A DNA stretch of 24,043 bases from a virus (lineage: Duplodnaviria > Caudoviricetes). Below, in pieces: positions 3,278-24,043 of this stretch. Within the stretch, counting starts at the first letter, position 1; each line of letters begins with the position of its first letter. The stretch lies in IMG/VR virus record IMGVR_UViG_3300034355_000015, positions 1 through 24,043 of that record, one strand, 5' to 3'. The notes beneath the pieces are model-generated. The model was not told the origin of the DNA and ran no database searches. It was given only the letters and a program-made list of their open reading frames with translations. The translations under genes and the position numbers were made by a program.

Positions 3278-3418
3278 TTACATTGCCTTCTTCTTGAGCA
3301 TTGACATGCCCTTCTTTAATTCTTTAGCCTTTGCAGTTCTTGATTCAGCCTTTTCAGCCATTGCATAAGCCTTCTTCTTCATTGCTGGTGATGCTGCCTT
3401 CTTCTTCATTGCTGGCAT
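3278..3418 (-). CDS. Possible in-frame nested 46-aa basic protein (MPAMKKKAASPAMKKKAY...)
   Basis: AAGGGG RBS-like sequence just before the in-frame ATG at 3418, immediately after the end of the Ntn fold. Confidence 0.5.
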   Translation of the reverse strand: MPAMKKKAASPAMKKKAYAMAEKAESRTAKAKELKKGMSMLKKKAM

Positions 3419-3979
3419 GTTATTCCCCTTTTGTGTGATTATTTTGACATCTCCACCGACACCTATACAGTAGTCAGCAGAAATCTTAATTGCTCTACGA
3501 GCAGCAAACTCTGCTGCCTTAATAGAGTTCTTACTAAAGCCAGTGGCTAATGCACCTAGTGCTAATTGCCCACCACTGCCTACTGAGTAAAGTCCACGGT
3601 CATCTCGTGACCATAAGTATTGTTCGTCAATTTCATAAATAACACCGTTTAAACACATAAGTGCATCAAAGCCAGCGTTTGGGTCTTTAACCGCATCTGG
3701 TTCATAACCATGTTCTTTCATTGCATCTCGTAGAGATGGAAGCACCTTGACTTGCATAAAAGCATCAAGTTGCATTGTCTTAATAAGTTTAGGTGGAGTC
3801 CATAAAAACTCTGCTATGTTGCCAGCAATGGCATCTCCTGCAAAGGCAAACACATAGTCACCCTTACGCACTGCCTTGTCCATGCCCTTGGCATAGTAAG
3901 GTTTGTCATCATAGGTAGTCATGGAATCTGCTGCAATTACTGCCCAGCCTTTTCCCTGAATACCTACGATGGCAGTCAT
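3278..3979 (-). CDS. Ntn-hydrolase, HslV/proteasome beta-subunit-like protease, with a basic C-terminal extension
   Basis: Thr at residue 2 (the nucleophile after Met removal), TAIVGI...VIAADS, conserved Lys region (MDKAV), FAFAGD and SVGSGG..ALGAL motifs. GGGG RBS upstream. Confidence 0.8.
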   Translation of the reverse strand: MTAIVGIQGKGWAVIAADSMTTYDDKPYYAKGMDKAVRKGDYVFAFAGDAIAGNIAEFLWTPPKLIKTMQLDAFMQVKVLPSLRDAMKEHGYEPDAVKDPNAGFDALMCLNGVIYEIDEQYLWSRDDRGLYSVGSGGQLALGALATGFSKNSIKAAEFAARRAIKISADYCIGVGGDVKIITQKGNNMPAMKKKAASPAMKKKAYAMAEKAESRTAKAKELKKGMSMLKKKAM

Positions 3980-18847: not shown

Positions 18848-20746
18848 TCATTGTGTATATGCGTAATCATTTAAGTTAACGGTCATTTGTTGGTTTCTGT
18901 CATGTCTTGTTTGGAACATATTGTATGAATTATGTGTGCGAGCAAACATACTTGCATTAGCAACTCTGTCTCTTACCGCTAGTTCTGCAAACCAGAACGC
19001 CATAACACAGTCAGTCTTTTGGCTGCGTGGAGCCTCTGGATACCAAGTAACCAGTTGCTCTACTAAAGCCTTTAGACCTTCGGATTGGTGCGTAGATGGA
19101 AACTCAATAAGGTTTAAACCTTCTTCATAACCATGAAACAATGTGGTAAGAGATGCCACACCGAAGTCTGTATCCCATTTATTGTTTCCAGTATGGTGTT
19201 CTTTGAGTGTGGCACCTCTTGTTTGTAGGTATTCCCGCACCTCACGGTCCTGAGTTAACATCGCTTGAAATGCATTTTTTTCAACACGCCACTCAGAAAT
19301 TGAATACTTGTCTGTCCAGTCTTTAATTAAACTTCTAATGTCATCAGGTTTCATACCCTGTTGGTTTGACACATCAAGCAAATACCTCTTTTGGGTAGAA
19401 ACATCAATGCCAATACACACAGCAGCGGTATACCCAGCCATGGCGGGGTCAAGCCCAGCAACCACAATGAGACCATCCATACCGTTATGTCGGTTACCTG
19501 CTTTGTTCTTTGGGATGATACCAATGTTACGAGAACCGTTAATAACACCCTTGACTGCTTCTTGTGGGAAAGCACTATCTTCGTGAACATGCTGTTGCTG
19601 ATAAACCATAGCCCAGAGATTGGGCGACATCCGACTGCGCTTCTTAGTGAGCGCCTCACCTGTCCACTTGTCGTAGAGACCATTAGCATCTGGTATACCA
19701 TTGCCAGACACTGGGGGCATATTGGTTTTAGCCCAAAGGGTAACCCAATCCTTCGGTTCATCGGCAAACTCCAATACCGCAGGTTGAGCGAAATAAGTCC
19801 AAGGAGAAGTTTCGTCTGGATAACGCATGGGGTCACGGAGTTCGGAATATAAATCCTTAGGGCGTAATCTTGTGCCTACTACCAGTAACTTACCGCCATC
19901 GTAATCAATACGAGACATAACTTCTGATTGAATCCAGTCAATCTGTTTTTCATATTCATGGGCGTTGGTATGGTCAACACAGTCATCCATGATGATTAGG
20001 TCGGCACGGGCACCGTAGATATGTCCACGAATACCAATAGCCTGAACCGTTGGGTCTTTTTCACCAGAGTCACGAGACTCAGATGATAGGTAAATTAAGT
20101 CCTGCTTCCACGAATCAGAGTTCTTTTCAAATCCGCCTGGAGGTCCAAAGGCGAGGTGTAAGTCCTGATAACGAGGATGGGTGAGTCTGTTCTTAATGGA
20201 GAGCAGGAACTTTTGCGCCATAGCCTGGGTTTTAGAAACAACCATGATACGGATGTTAGGGTTTTGGCAAATCCGATACACGGCATAGTTGACTGTAATA
20301 GTCGTTGACTTGGCGTGCTCTGGGGGAGTGTTTACGATGAGTAGGTCTTTATCCCCTGGCTCATAAATAATTGATGGGTGAACATCCGTAGGTGTCCTAG
20401 ATTCCAATAAATCAATCCAGTGGCGTTGATGTTCAAAAACTTGGACCCCAAGGTATTTTTCGGAAAAAATTTCAAATGGAGGTAGTTCTTCGGTCGGACC
20501 GCCTACTTCTCCACGGGCGGTCAGAGAGCGTAGTTTGTCTATACCTGCAGCAAAGTCAGGGTCTGTCTTACGATAATACTCGTAAGTCTTGACACTTCTC
20601 CCAACGGCATCCATGGCTCGTTGGACCGAGTAGCCTTGCATTAAAAAATCTATAATCTGCTTCTTTATGGCATCCGACTTATGGGATGCAGCAGTAACTC
20701 TTTTTCTTTCCATAGGCGTAGTAGCAATGCGACCTAATGGAAGCAT
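18848..20746 (-). CDS. terL: Terminase large subunit with N-terminal HTH extension (632 aa)
   Basis: Walker A-like PPEHAKST, GARADLIIMDD Walker B, VVGTR coupling motif, and nuclease residues in GLDPA, EKNAFQ and KTDCVMA; RBS GAAAGGA. Confidence 0.92.
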   Translation of the reverse strand: MLPLGRIATTPMERKRVTAASHKSDAIKKQIIDFLMQGYSVQRAMDAVGRSVKTYEYYRKTDPDFAAGIDKLRSLTARGEVGGPTEELPPFEIFSEKYLGVQVFEHQRHWIDLLESRTPTDVHPSIIYEPGDKDLLIVNTPPEHAKSTTITVNYAVYRICQNPNIRIMVVSKTQAMAQKFLLSIKNRLTHPRYQDLHLAFGPPGGFEKNSDSWKQDLIYLSSESRDSGEKDPTVQAIGIRGHIYGARADLIIMDDCVDHTNAHEYEKQIDWIQSEVMSRIDYDGGKLLVVGTRLRPKDLYSELRDPMRYPDETSPWTYFAQPAVLEFADEPKDWVTLWAKTNMPPVSGNGIPDANGLYDKWTGEALTKKRSRMSPNLWAMVYQQQHVHEDSAFPQEAVKGVINGSRNIGIIPKNKAGNRHNGMDGLIVVAGLDPAMAGYTAAVCIGIDVSTQKRYLLDVSNQQGMKPDDIRSLIKDWTDKYSISEWRVEKNAFQAMLTQDREVREYLQTRGATLKEHHTGNNKWDTDFGVASLTTLFHGYEEGLNLIEFPSTHQSEGLKALVEQLVTWYPEAPRSQKTDCVMAFWFAELAVRDRVANASMFARTHNSYNMFQTRHDRNQQMTVNLNDYAYTQ

Positions 20747-20887
20747 TGCAGTTTATCCTTTCCTAACCGTAGGCTGTAGCCCTAAGGCGGAAGCCGTAGG
20801 TTAGGGCAATAACTAGGGGGCAGCCTCTGGGCTGCCTATGAACTTTAGCGTAGGGCGACCATTATTTTGCCCTACATATACTATTAG

Positions 20888-20912
20888 GTGTCCAAAGGAC
20901 ACTTATTGGACA
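20888..20912. promoter_or_regulatory. Palindrome GTGTCC-AAA-GGACAC plus an extra GGACA half-site upstream of the late operon
   Basis: Perfect 6-bp inverted repeat at 20888-20902 beside an AT-rich segment, about 140 nt upstream of terL. Confidence 0.4.
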
Positions 20913-21006
20913 TTTTATTTGTAACTATTTTGTAACGGTTTACCTTTCAGGTAAAACCGCAGGTCAGAGCATGCAGACCCCAGGGCTATCAAAGTTATGT
21001 GGGTAG

Positions 21007-21034
21007 ATACACATACACACATACACACATATAT
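21007..21034. repeat. Short ATACAC(AC) tandem repeat
   Basis: ATACAC ATACACAC ATACACAC ATATAT. Confidence 0.8.
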
Positions 21035-21303
21035 TTAAAAACCTGGGGTCAAACATTTTGCTTAGCAATGCTTTTGTTTAAACTGCTTGCTGCTTTTGCT
21101 GCTGCTGCTGGCAAAACTAGGGCTGAGCAGTGCTATCTGCTGGCTTGGCGCTGACTCGTTGCTCGTATCAATCTCGCCCCGACCCAGCATACGCAGCGCA
21201 GCGCTTGGCTTGGCTGCATGCTTGGGCATCTCACTATGTGAGACGGGCATCTCAACATGTGGCAATGGCTCCACAATGCCCAATAAGTTACTCGTGAGTA
21301 ACT

Positions 21304-21507
21304 CTCTAAAGTCAGTTGTTTAATATCACTTTAGAGCATCGCAACATTTCAACATCGCTAAAGTCAGTATAAATCAATGGTTTTAGAGCATTACTCGCCA
21401 GTAACTTATTTTTTACCGCTTGCCAGCGCATGACCAATCGGAGGTAATCGTTTAAATCCAAATCGTTTAAACTGCTCTAAAGTCAGTTAAAATCAAGGGT
21501 TTTAGGG
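21304..21507 (+). repeat. Three imperfect 33-bp direct repeats with inverted ends (21304-21336, 21356-21388, 21475-21507)
   Basis: CTCTAAAGTCAGTTGTTTAATATCACTTTAGAG / CGCTAAAGTCAGTATAAATCAATGGTTTTAGAG / CTCTAAAGTCAGTTAAAATCAAGGGTTTTAGGG. Confidence 0.85.
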
Positions 21508-21511
21508 GTGC

Positions 21512-21540
21512 TTGTAATTTTGTTTAAACTCGTTTACCTT
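21512..21540 (+). promoter_or_regulatory. Predicted housekeeping-sigma promoter of the plus-strand operon
   Basis: TTGTAA-N17-TACCTT (TANNNT -10), with GTTTAAAC in the spacer. Predicted start near 21547, at the hairpin AGTGGA-ACAA-TCCACT. Confidence 0.55.
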
Positions 21541-21586
21541 TATCCCAGTGGAACAATCCACTACCGACTGGAAAGGTAACAACATC

Positions 21587-22117
21587 ATGAGAAATCGTGA
21601 ACAATGGCTCGCAGCGTTTGCAACTGCTGCTCGCCGACCAATCGCTCAATCAATCCAAGGTGGAGGCGAGGAGGAGAGCGCAATCCGTCTCTCTTGTGGC
21701 TTCCCTCCTAAAACTGGGCGCAAGGCTGCAACTGCTGCAATCGTGCCTCCAACTGCATCTCAGGATTTCACTGCTGAGATTTTCGTGGCTCCAACCGTTG
21801 ACCAAGCCTCCGAGGTAGCCAAGGCGATTATTCCCTTGCTCCGAGTGGCTCAATCAGGCAACTGGCGCTCAGCAGCACCAAGCGTTGCTCAACCCTTGGC
21901 TGACCTCCCAGCATGGGCAGAATCAATCCTCGAATCCCTTGGCGAATATCCTCACGCCAAAATCGAAATCGCTGCTGCTGCCAAGCAGACAACTCGCCTC
22001 ATCAAGGTTGCGTGTTTAAACGACAACTACATCGCCCGAATCTCTCGCTCAACGCTTGTGAATCTTGGCGCTCCAATCTGCCCAGCATGCAACATCTCAC
22101 TCGTGGAGGCTAACTAA
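21587..22117 (+). CDS. SprT-like zincin-family homolog lacking HExxH (176 aa)
   Basis: REQWL, IRLSCGFP, EIFVAP, LGEYPHA, KQTTRLIKVAC and GAPICPAC match a phage SprT-like family as I recall it; RBS GAAAGG favours ATG 21587. Confidence 0.65.
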   Translation: MRNREQWLAAFATAARRPIAQSIQGGGEEESAIRLSCGFPPKTGRKAATAAIVPPTASQDFTAEIFVAPTVDQASEVAKAIIPLLRVAQSGNWRSAAPSVAQPLADLPAWAESILESLGEYPHAKIEIAAAAKQTTRLIKVACLNDNYIARISRSTLVNLGAPICPACNISLVEAN

Positions 22118-22866
22118 TGACTACCTTCGGTTTAGAGTTCGAGGTCGCAGGTATCTCGACATCAGCAGCATCAGCAGCGCTCAATCGTGGCGGAATCGCT
22201 TGCGAGGAGCCACGCTCAGCACATCAGCGCAACGATAACTGGACATCAGTTTACGATGGCTCAGTTCGTGGAGCCGAGGTTGTCTCTCCAATCCTCGACC
22301 CAATCCGTTTAAACGAGGCATCAACCGTTGCCCGCTTGCTTCTCGGAGCAGGTGGCAAGGTTGACCGCACAACTGGCTTCCATGTCCATATCGGCGCTCA
22401 AGATTTAAGCGTGGACAATATCGCCCAGTGGTATCTCAACTGGAATCTAGTTCACGATGCAATCGGCGTGCTCGTTGCGCCAAGCCGTTTAAACAACTCA
22501 TACTGCAAATCGGTAAATCGTGAACATGCCGAGGCTAACGCCGAGCGCATCCGCAACGGCAAAATCTCCGACCTACGAGGCGACCGCTACCAATCGTTTA
22601 ACCTCGAAGCATACGGTCGCCATGGCACCCTCGAAATCCGACTACACCAAGGCACCCTCAACGGAGCCAAAGCGGTGGCGTGGGCAAAGTTCATTGATGC
22701 GTTTAAACAACTCAGTGCAACTCAATTACTGGCTCCTGAATCATTGGGCACTGGCACAAAATTGCAGCAGTGCACCAACCTCCTCAGCCTGCTAGTAATC
22801 CAAAGCGACCTTGACCTCAAGACCGCCGAGTATCTCAAAGACCGAGCAGCATCCCTCAACGGATAG
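22117..22866 (+). CDS. Putative amidoligase (COOH-NH2 ligase type 2, glutamine-synthetase-like fold), 249 aa
   Basis: TFGLEFE, YDGSV, GAEVVSPIL, TTGFHVH, RYQSFNL and HGTLEIRLHQGTLN motifs. Confidence 0.88.
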   Translation: MTTFGLEFEVAGISTSAASAALNRGGIACEEPRSAHQRNDNWTSVYDGSVRGAEVVSPILDPIRLNEASTVARLLLGAGGKVDRTTGFHVHIGAQDLSVDNIAQWYLNWNLVHDAIGVLVAPSRLNNSYCKSVNREHAEANAERIRNGKISDLRGDRYQSFNLEAYGRHGTLEIRLHQGTLNGAKAVAWAKFIDAFKQLSATQLLAPESLGTGTKLQQCTNLLSLLVIQSDLDLKTAEYLKDRAASLNG

Positions 22867-22875
22867 CAGCAGGCA

Positions 22876-22921
22876 GCCTGCCCCTAGTGGGTGAGCGAGG
22901 GTGCAATCCCCTCGGCAGGCA
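22876..22921 (+). ncRNA. tRNA-like element lacking the anticodon arm
   Basis: 7-bp stem GCCTGCC/GGCAGGC, 5-bp stem GAGGG/CCCTC with 7-nt loop TGCAATC, and a 14-nt connector containing TAGTGG. Confidence 0.6.
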
Positions 22922-22971
22922 CGAACGGATAGAGAAAATCTCTCTACCGTTTAAACAAAGGAGACTGGAAA

Positions 22972-23073
22972 ATGTATAACGCATTACCTTGGTGGCTGAC
23001 TTGGATAGATGGTCGTGCCTTACTGCTTGCCTTGCTTGCGGTCGGCTTCTATCTATATTCAAAGTTGGTATAA
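22972..23073 (+). CDS. 33-aa membrane microprotein (MYNALPWWLTWIDGRALLLALLAVGFYLYSKLV); not in the ORF track
   Basis: RBS AAGGAG 8 nt upstream; one hydrophobic helix. Confidence 0.7.
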   Translation: MYNALPWWLTWIDGRALLLALLAVGFYLYSKLV

Positions 23074-23077
23074 CAAA

Positions 23078-23224
23078 ATGTTATATATCATTGAAGGCAC
23101 CGACCCATCGGGTCGTAAGTTCAATAGTATTTACAACAAAGAGGATGCCGATTACCTATTGGCAGCCGACCGTTTAAACAGGCTGGTAAAAGTTATCAGC
23201 CCATGTGTTACACTTAACTCATAA
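23078..23224 (+). CDS. 48-aa hypothetical protein (MLYIIEGTDPSGRKFNSIY...)
   Basis: ATG 4 nt after the previous stop; fills the gap up to the GATase gene. Confidence 0.6.
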   Translation: MLYIIEGTDPSGRKFNSIYNKEDADYLLAADRLNRLVKVISPCVTLNS

Positions 23225-23250
23225 CAACTAGCAGACTGGAGAAATAAATT

Positions 23251-24043
23251 ATGTGTGGAATCGCAGGCTTCTGCCTCAACCCAAAGCACAATCAGAATCA
23301 AACAGACCTTGCAGCACAAATGCTCATGGACATCGAGCATCGTGGGCAAGATGCAACAGGTGTTGCTTGGATTAACCCAGCCTCAGGCAATCGGGTAATC
23401 ACAAAGGCACCGCTATCAGCAACTAAGTTCATCGCAACAGATGCAGGCAGGCGCTTATGTTTAAACGCACAGACTGCTATCTTGCACACTCGTTGGGCAA
23501 CTCAAGGTTCACCAAAGGTGAGCGACAACAACCACCCAATTCCTCGTGGCAAAATCGTGCTCACTCACAACGGACACATCAGCAACGATGACCAATTGTT
23601 TAAACAACTTAAGGTCAAGCGCCATGGACAGGTAGACAGCGAGGCAGTGGCTGCACTAATTGCCTTTACCGCAGCGCCTATCACCGAGGTGTTGGCTCGT
23701 GTTCAAGGCACTGCTGCACTGGCTTGGATTGAGCAGGGCAAGGGCAACACACTGCATCTTGCTCGTGTTAACTCCTCACCCCTATGGATTGGGCAAACCA
23801 AATCAGGTTCCCTTGTTTACGGCTCAACTCAAGAGACAATCGAGAACGCAGCAATCATGCTCGACTCAGACCTTGATTGGGAATACACCGCAGCCGAGGG
23901 TGAATACTTCAAGGTTAAGAACGGCAAGATTGTGGAGCATCAGAACTTCGAGCCGTTTAGACAGGTCTATACAAACAACTGGCGTGGGTTCGGTAGATTA
24001 ACCGATGCAGAACTCGACAAGTATTGGGCTGACCAAGATGAAC
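23251..24043 (+). CDS. Class II (Ntn) glutamine amidotransferase; runs off the right edge; missing from the ORF track
   Basis: Manual translation gives MCGIAG (catalytic N-terminal Cys), HRGQDATG, HTRWATQGS, NNHP, THNGHI and VDSE; RBS GGAG. Confidence 0.92.
   Translation, partial: MCGIAGFCLNPKHNQNQTDLAAQMLMDIEHRGQDATGVAWINPASGNRVITKAPLSATKFIATDAGRRLCLNAQTAILHTRWATQGSPKVSDNNHPIPRGKIVLTHNGHISNDDQLFKQLKVKRHGQVDSEAVAALIAFTAAPITEVLARVQGTAALAWIEQGKGNTLHLARVNSSPLWIGQTKSGSLVYGSTQETIENAAIMLDSDLDWEYTAAEGEYFKVKNGKIVEHQNFEPFRQVYTNNWRGFGRLTDAELDKYWADQDE

Follow-up and report, generated by a model that had tools for sequence, protein, structure and literature searches.

Genomic setting of the element

The window analyzed here (the whole 24,043-nt stretch of DNA, a fragment of a phage genome) contains 46 bases (22876–22921, + strand), located just past the stop codon of a putative amidoligase gene, which raise the question of whether a phage message carries a copy of the top half of a tRNA and what such a structure would do there. 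A sequence-only reading of this DNA had described them as a tRNA mimic with an acceptor stem and a T-arm but no anticodon arm. PHROG-type annotation of the ORFs revealed that the terminase, portal and major head genes are oriented leftward; a gene for an HslV/proteasome-subunit-like peptidase (3278–3979, − strand) adjoins the major head gene. The rightward unit begins near 21548 and comprises, in order, an unassigned gene, the Amidoligase_2 gene, the element, two small ORFs and the GATase_6 gene. The gene preceding the amidoligase gene (21548–22117) has a C-terminal cysteine cluster and belongs to phrog_6361. The features of the locus are as follows.

22117..22866, + strand: putative amidoligase gene upstream (Pfam Amidoligase_2, E 1.5e-22); context, as the element does not require this gene
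22867..22875, + strand: single-stranded 5′ leader, 9 nt, spanning the stop codon to +1
between 22875 and 22876, + strand: predicted cut position (inferred)
22876..22881, + strand: P1, acceptor-like stem of 6 bp, 5′ strand; double changes in 4/6 pairs, 2 pairs invariant
22882..22891, + strand: P2, mini D-arm, 3-bp stem and 4-nt NAGU loop; predicted elbow partner of the T-loop
22892..22895, + strand: linker, 4 nt here (4–7 nt in the family), in the place of the tRNA anticodon and variable arms
22896..22914, + strand: P3, T-stem of 6 bp with a 7-nt T-loop (22902–22908); double changes in 6/6 pairs
22915..22920, + strand: P1, 3′ strand (covariation)
22921..22924, + strand: pre-tRNA-like 3′ tail, positions 73–76, consensus R-C-(not C)-A
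22923..22952, + strand: P4, predicted second hairpin, variable in sequence, usually with an A-rich 5-nt loop
22957..22974, + strand: ribosome-binding site and start codon of the first downstream gene (read from the sequence and the ORF list)
22972..23073, + strand: small ORF of 33 aa, first in a variable set of small genes preceding the glutamine amidotransferase gene
23251 onward, + strand: glutamine amidotransferase gene (Pfam GATase_6)

The 33-aa ORF (22972–23073) has no Pfam or PHROG match. Its cluster accounts for 29 of the 111 first-downstream ORFs, which together form 36 clusters, and the region 22972–23224, with the related loci, is a hot spot of exchanged genes (23–118 aa) between the element and the amidotransferase gene.

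The sister record G001 (CheckV 100%) encodes an amidoligase identical to that of the window, and its rightward unit runs on to genes for DUF3846, an SLT domain and WhiB. Since the known distribution of WhiB is actinobacterial, its presence in G001 points to an actinobacterial host for the window phage.

The divergent gene units are separated by approximately 800 nt (20750–21547), probably a control region. This stretch contains a 13-nt motif in three near-copies (near 21305, 21358 and 21477) and a TACACA-type short repeat (near 21008–21030). The palindrome GTTTAAAC occurs at 21 sites in the window, from 1588 to 23605 (expected number, 0.62), and 11 of these are located beyond 21000; one copy overlaps the 3′ arm of P4. 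G001 has 37 sites in its first 20 kb; G006 and G008–G011 lack the palindrome.

Secondary structure and covariation

Two hand-picked alignments, A3 (34 distinct homologues) and A4 (46 distinct members), were used to examine the proposed fold. In A4, 99.7% of the cells pair, compared with 36–50% in slid controls, and changes on both sides were observed in 11 of the 16 pairs, a number reached by 0/500 shuffles; these shuffle and slid controls ignore phylogeny, and the counts, drawn from related sequences, do not represent independent events. The sequence-only reading had staked its proposal on conservation of the stem lengths and the loop in relatives, and both are indeed conserved.

A 7-bp acceptor stem and a 5-bp T-stem, as originally described, can be drawn in the window, but their register is off by one. 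Seven of the 34 members of A3 cannot form the seventh acceptor pair (22882:22914), whereas all 34 keep the alternative pair 22914:22896, with double changes in 7. The register is therefore a 6-bp outer stem and a 6-bp T-stem, which still add up to a stack of 12 bp. The 7-nt loop (22902–22908), the A at 22921 and the lack of an encoded CCA, all stated in the same reading, are present as described: the tail of the window element (22921–22924) is ACGA, with G at position 75.

Within the T-loop, the 54–58 pair is U-A in 37 and A-U in 9 of the 46 members of A4, and G55 and C56 are invariant. Such a U-A/A-U swap at 54–58 is a mark of the T-loop motif. Over 79 distinct cores, 936 Watson-Crick pairs, 10 G-U pairs, no A-C pairs and 2 other pairs were counted; since G-U pairs occur and A-C pairs do not, an RNA transcribed from the gene strand is favoured.

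The 14 nt between the two stems, originally described as a linker with a D-loop-like AGTGG, are predicted to fold as a 3-bp hairpin (22882–22884 with 22889–22891, loop 22885–22888) followed by 4 nt. The sequence of P2 never varies in the alignment, so covariation is silent on its pairing, for or against. The length of the linker that follows is 4 nt in 50 of the 79 cores, 5 in 21, 6 in 7 and 7 in one. We infer that the A and G of the NAGU loop act as positions 18 and 19 in an elbow with the T-loop; the literature search found no paper supporting an A18-G55 contact.

The sequence-only reading had missed a conserved second hairpin, P4 (22923–22952). Of 127 members, 119 have a predicted folding energy (ΔG) of −6 or lower for this hairpin (the mean z against shuffles is −3.0), and 77 have a first loop of 5 nt.

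Folding of the single window sequence gave z values of −0.16 (81 nt) and −1.92 (49 nt), which are not clearly beyond chance; the comparative evidence for the fold, as judged from the alignments, exceeds chance. On these comparative grounds, the 46 bases are taken as a genuine structured RNA that is uncatalogued and is shaped like the top half of a tRNA. Hallmarks of tRNA found in it are the 12-bp acceptor/T stack, the covarying 54–58 pair and the invariant C56, and together with the D-loop-like AG and the pre-tRNA-like ends described below they support the mimicry originally proposed.

Ends, leader and spacing

The position designated +1 is a purine in 79/79 cores (G in 70), position −1 is never U in the same cores, and −1 and 73 are unpaired in 75 of them. 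The tail has a purine at position 73 in 78 cores, C74 in 77, C75 in one and A76 in 68; a complete CCA is present in none. The R-C tail had been imposed in one pattern scan and was unconstrained in the others; where the 3′ end was left free, 86/86 closing matches finished in AC or GC. P1 could be lengthened by pairing −3 with 74 in 93 of 115 members, but not in the other 22. The element starts 6–11 nt past the stop codon in 106 of 115 members, and a GG-Y-A bias is observed at leader positions −4 to −1, which is absent from the host-type tRNA leaders checked.

These ends were compared with tRNA genes of two actinobacterial genomes, which may not be hosts of these phages. C74 is encoded by 27/27 and 29/29 of the genes examined (out of 41 and 40 matches, respectively), and C75 by only 10 and 8. 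Taken together, these two genomes (G013 and G014; L575–L629) encode C74 in 56/56 of the tRNA genes examined and CCA in only 16. In Mycobacterium tuberculosis, 32 of 45 tRNA genes are described as lacking an encoded CCA, and CCA-less tRNAs as being trimmed and then CCA-tailed (PMC10673834). By sequence, the ends of the element thus copy those of actinobacterial pre-tRNAs, with a purine at +1, unpaired −1 and 73, a near-fixed C74 and a nearly absent C75.

Distribution of homologues

The element was searched for with descriptors fixing different parts of it. A scan fixing the 5′ part gave 97 matches, of which 86 close both stems, with a T-loop beginning UGC or AGC throughout. When the outer stem and the T-loop were fixed, 101 of 119 viral matches were true, and the CCC-N-AGT-GGG core was present in 101/101. 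With the core fixed and the common outer stem excluded, 42/42 viral matches were true, and a scan anchored on the T-arm only recovered the core in 32 of 34. A metagenome scan added further outer-stem variants amid many chance matches. A pattern scan of bacterial genomes in GTDB gave 49 matches, of which 2 score as members. Chance matches were dropped before counting (11/97, 18/119 and 47/49, as well as poorly paired metagenome matches).

One of the two GTDB members is located on a 1.5-kb contig, beside a phage-type amidoligase gene. A model search of 151 actinobacterial genomes refound only this phage-like contig, plus one chance match. The other GTDB member, a full one (L399, 2993–3043, − strand), was observed near the end of a 165-kb cyanobacterial MAG contig, with phage-like ORFs around it; it may extend the host range or reflect a mis-binned contig. 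A blastn search of cultured phages with a distant member gave 5 short matches at chance level, and no cultured phage of exactly this subfamily was found.

The element is single-copy in the genomes searched, the two matches in G001 lying in its duplicated end. G011 contains a decayed second copy (L557, 1410–1449) approximately 1.1 kb upstream of the intact one, in a duplicated gene end, and one 4-kb metagenome contig carries two identical copies (L434/L435) with a T-C-C-G tail and differing downstream genes.

Among amidoligase-anchored loci with downstream DNA, the element follows the stop codon in 43 of 45, the two misses belonging to a 37%-identical relative. Viewed from the element, the amidoligase gene is directly upstream at 88 of the 111 loci with at least 600 nt of upstream sequence and is absent from the other 23. 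Amidoligase_2 was found in 0/5 element-bearing records searched, 3 of which are at least 98% complete and carry WhiB, and two Arthrobacter phages contain the amidoligase/amidotransferase gene pair without the element. The flanking genes differ among element loci, and they include no shared candidate binding gene.

Comparison with known structured RNAs

ARAGORN, one of the programs proposed in the sequence-only reading, detected no tRNA or tmRNA gene. A tRNA gene was rejected on this basis and on the lack of an anticodon arm, with only 4–7 nt between the mini D-arm and the T-stem. Rfam, likewise proposed there, identified no family at the element when the whole window was searched, and nothing at 10 distant loci; a search of the 151-nt region gave only sub-threshold matches (reverse-strand Plastid-ycf2, 23.2 bits; the tymovirus tRNA-like structure [TLS], 11.4 bits; MEG8_1). 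The literature search found no description of the element among the matches listed. The anonymous catalogue of Fremin 2023 (PMC10690425) may contain it; supplementary files 3, 4, 5 and 6 of that paper held no element matches.

The closest likeness is to the TLS of tymoviruses, pomoviruses and furoviruses (Rfam RF00233), in whose consensus the D-loop is CAGU (4 nt) and the T-loop UGCAACU. The window family shares the NAGU loop and the UGCRA T-loop, and the T-loop is identical in 2 of the 79 cores. Both the TLS of turnip yellow mosaic virus (TYMV; bioRxiv 2020.06.19.162263) and the window family have 12 bp from the T-loop to the tail, and the D/T association of TYMV is reported to be nearly identical to that of tRNA (PMC4810234; further TLS background in PMC8127992). 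In contrast to RF00233, the window element has no valine anticodon arm, no pseudoknotted acceptor and no terminal CCA; its RF00233 score is 11.4 bits against a gathering threshold of 40, and it would lie within the transcript of a DNA phage. The tymovirus-type elbow predicted here appears to reflect convergence, not homology.

The tmRNA, to which the sequence-only reading had compared the element, does share its reduced architecture (RF00023; an acceptor-like stem stacked on a T-arm, with no anticodon arm), and two copies from the Mycobacterium phage Indlulamithi gave sub-threshold tmRNA matches, but the fit is poorer than that of the tymovirus elbow. A tmRNA was rejected, as pair 3 is C-G in 44 of 46 members (no G3-U70), CCA occurs in 0/79 cores, there is no tag reading frame and the register is 6+6 rather than 7+5. 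In a comparison with YrlA/Y RNAs, the connectivity was found not to be permuted and no Rfam match was obtained; no TROVE (Ro60) domain was found among the 42 ORFs scanned against Pfam.

In mascRNA/menRNA and the t-elements of plant mitochondria, a tRNA-like fold within a longer transcript directs cutting by RNase P and RNase Z (PMC4919922). These are eukaryotic or organellar, whereas the window element belongs to a bacterial virus and has a 6+6 register, and its cleavage is a prediction. It is placed between co-oriented genes, where it may be embedded in a longer transcript. The CI RNA of phage P4 is grouped with the C4-type antisense RNAs cut by RNase P. The C4 antisense RNA of phages P1/P7 is cut by host RNase P from an early polycistronic transcript (PMC11143913), and the window element is much smaller than this RNA. 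An antisense RNA of the C4/CI type was rejected, as only one 12-mer and one 11-mer complement were found in positions 1–40000 of G001, with no Rfam match.

A related multi-copy class in cultured actinophages

Related top-half structures are present in many copies in cultured phages. Twelve were found in the scanned half of the Indlulamithi genome (35000–71538; 36.5 kb); Fowlmouth has 10, in 24 kb, and GMA7 has 2. The respective reversed-sequence controls gave 1, 0 and 0. The generic descriptor used for the class missed two members found by the model (G008 and G010). The copies in these three phages are unannotated in the records and lie between early genes, mostly 5–13 nt past annotated stop codons. 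In Fowlmouth, one copy begins 6 nt within the gene that precedes it and overlaps the stop codon of that gene, and one Indlulamithi copy is 135 nt from the annotated stop.

Like the window element, these copies consist of a 5–6-bp stem on a 6-bp T-stem, just past a stop codon, followed by a hairpin and a ribosome-binding site. They differ in having a UUCRA T-loop and an open GG linker, whereas the window subfamily has a UGCRA or AGCRU T-loop and a closed CCC-NAGU-GGG mini D-arm, usually in one copy. Among the 37 UUC-type elements, −1 and 73 are unpaired in 37/37, C74 is present in 31 and C75 in 2; the outer stem is 6 bp long in 19 and 5 bp in 18, the latter giving an 11-bp (5+6) stack. The linkage of T-loop type with D-loop type across the class is suggestive, the GG linker having been fixed in the UUC-type scan. 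Judged by its layout, the window element is a variant of this multi-copy class of Mycobacterium and Gordonia phages, with a different elbow.

Predicted processing by RNase P

The preferred reading, with a probability of about one half, is that the element is a cut mark for host RNase P in the early phage message, the cut being predicted from sequence features. The element would be transcribed within the rightward unit, and docking of its NAGU loop on the T-loop (UGCRA) would create an elbow like that of the tymovirus TLS. RNase P would grip this elbow, measure 12 bp, pair with R73-C74 and cut at +1. Downstream, the message from the small genes and the amidotransferase gene onward would keep a base-paired 5′ end resisting 5′-end-dependent decay, while the upstream message would be left with a bare tail of 6–11 nt and decay faster. 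Early genes sharing one transcript would thereby be expressed to different extents. Base-paired 5′ ends resist both RNase J and RNase E.

RNase P is described as gripping the elbow, as using a 12-bp ruler from the T-loop and as pairing with positions 73–75 (PMC11143913, PMC4810234). Its non-tRNA substrates include the TYMV TLS, C4 RNA and some mRNAs (PMC11143913), and in living Bacillus subtilis cells the enzyme matures precursors that lack CCA (PMC1874595). A type A RNase P RNA is encoded in 4/4 actinobacterial genomes checked, and the GGU of L15 is kept in the one that was aligned. The ruler is matched by 6+6 bp throughout A4, with no −1:73 extension in 75 of the 79 cores. The likeness of the ends to those of actinobacterial tRNA genes and the repetition of the same layout between early genes of cultured actinophages were also counted in favour of this reading.

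Several observations fit it less comfortably. With G75 in the substrate, cutting by B. subtilis RNase P at 2 mM Mg2+ was slowed more than 100-fold (PMC1874595, Table 3). As the window element has G75, and C75 is present in only 1/79 cores, cutting may be slow or partial. The 11-bp stacks of 18 of the 37 UUC-type elements would suit a strict 12-bp ruler less well, and the Fowlmouth copy inside the upstream gene and the Indlulamithi copy 135 nt from a stop codon also count against the model. The invariant junction and the GG-Y-A leader bias exceed what RNase P is known to need and may mark the site of a specific protein.

A less likely competitor is that the element is never cut and acts in cis as a folded landmark, to which the ribosome or a protein of host or phage that reads the elbow would bind, with antitermination, translational insulation past the stop codon or a barrier to exonucleases as the effect. 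The invariant junction, the conserved leader bases −4 and −3, the second hairpin with its preferred 5-nt loop and the poor match to RNase P at position 75 would all suit such a landmark, as would the spacing from the stop codon, since 6–11 nt is close to the edge of a terminating ribosome given the size of its footprint. However, a landmark of this kind leaves unexplained why the stack ends at 12 bp, why −1 and 73 are unpaired and why the R-C tail resembles that of the host, and the differing flanks supply no shared gene for the binding protein. It is more doubtful still that the element is excised as a mini-tRNA of 46–49 nt, CCA-added and acting in trans as a decoy for defence proteins that bind acceptor ends or elbows, with P4 capping the downstream mRNA. 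Such excision has precedents in mascRNA and the t-elements (PMC4919922); the 3′ tail is like that of host CCA-less tRNA genes, whose products are trimmed and CCA-tailed (PMC10673834), and P4 begins a few bases from position 73. The decoy function is weakened by the single copy per genome in the window family and by the lack of CCA and of an anticodon arm, which leaves nothing for anticodon nucleases, and exonucleolytic trimming would destroy the downstream message. Moreover, only 40 of 201 genomes of the bacterial class gave an RNase Z-like gene at E ≤ 1e-50, none of them smaller than 2.6 Mb and none of the matches above the curated cut-off (39 of 200, the smallest 3.0 Mb, when the unpublished G195 is left out), which makes a single 5′ cut likelier than excision.

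A plain terminator, which the sequence-only reading had named as the observation that would count against it, a site acting at the DNA level, or a relic of a tRNA attachment site is very improbable. GC-rich stems directly after a stop codon, the fact that actinobacterial terminators can lack U-tracts and the frequent exchange of downstream genes (36 clusters in 111) speak for this group of readings. Against this, a search for intrinsic terminators (a GC hairpin with a U-tract) found 0 sites in 20600–24043, the 54–58 swap and the asymmetry between G-U and A-C pairs are signatures of RNA tertiary structure, and no room is left for a promoter ahead of the next gene. Free variation in the stems does not fit an attachment core, and the only finds among the 151 actinobacterial genomes were the 1.5-kb phage-like contig and a chance match. 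The idea that the flanking amidoligase and glutamine amidotransferase use the element as a substrate, as the sequence-only reading had more speculatively suggested, or as a cofactor rested on a neighbourhood that is indeed frequent (43 of 45 anchored loci, 88 of 111 element loci). It has been largely refuted and is now scarcely credible, given the 23 loci with no such gene upstream, the five records without Amidoligase_2 and the two Arthrobacter phages that have the gene pair and no element.

Returning to the RNase P cut mark, a broader proposal, offered tentatively and at somewhat less than even odds, covers the whole actinophage class. Portable mini-tRNAs would make RNase P cut early transcripts and would cap the resulting pieces with a folded 5′ end. 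The window subfamily would have reached its tymovirus-type elbow independently; without U55, C75 and an anticodon arm, it would be visible to RNase P and hidden from translation and from tRNA-sensing defences. The class is directly testable, since cultured phages of Mycobacterium smegmatis carry 10–12 copies, and the module could serve as a small processing and stabilizing tag in actinobacteria. Organelles and long non-coding RNAs provide known cases of such punctuation; its general use by phages was not found in the literature searched. Should the cut prove real, these phages would punctuate and stabilize their own messages by means of a ribozyme essential to the host, and the 46-nt module would be a naturally evolved, near-minimal substrate of RNase P and a second natural use of a tymovirus-type elbow.
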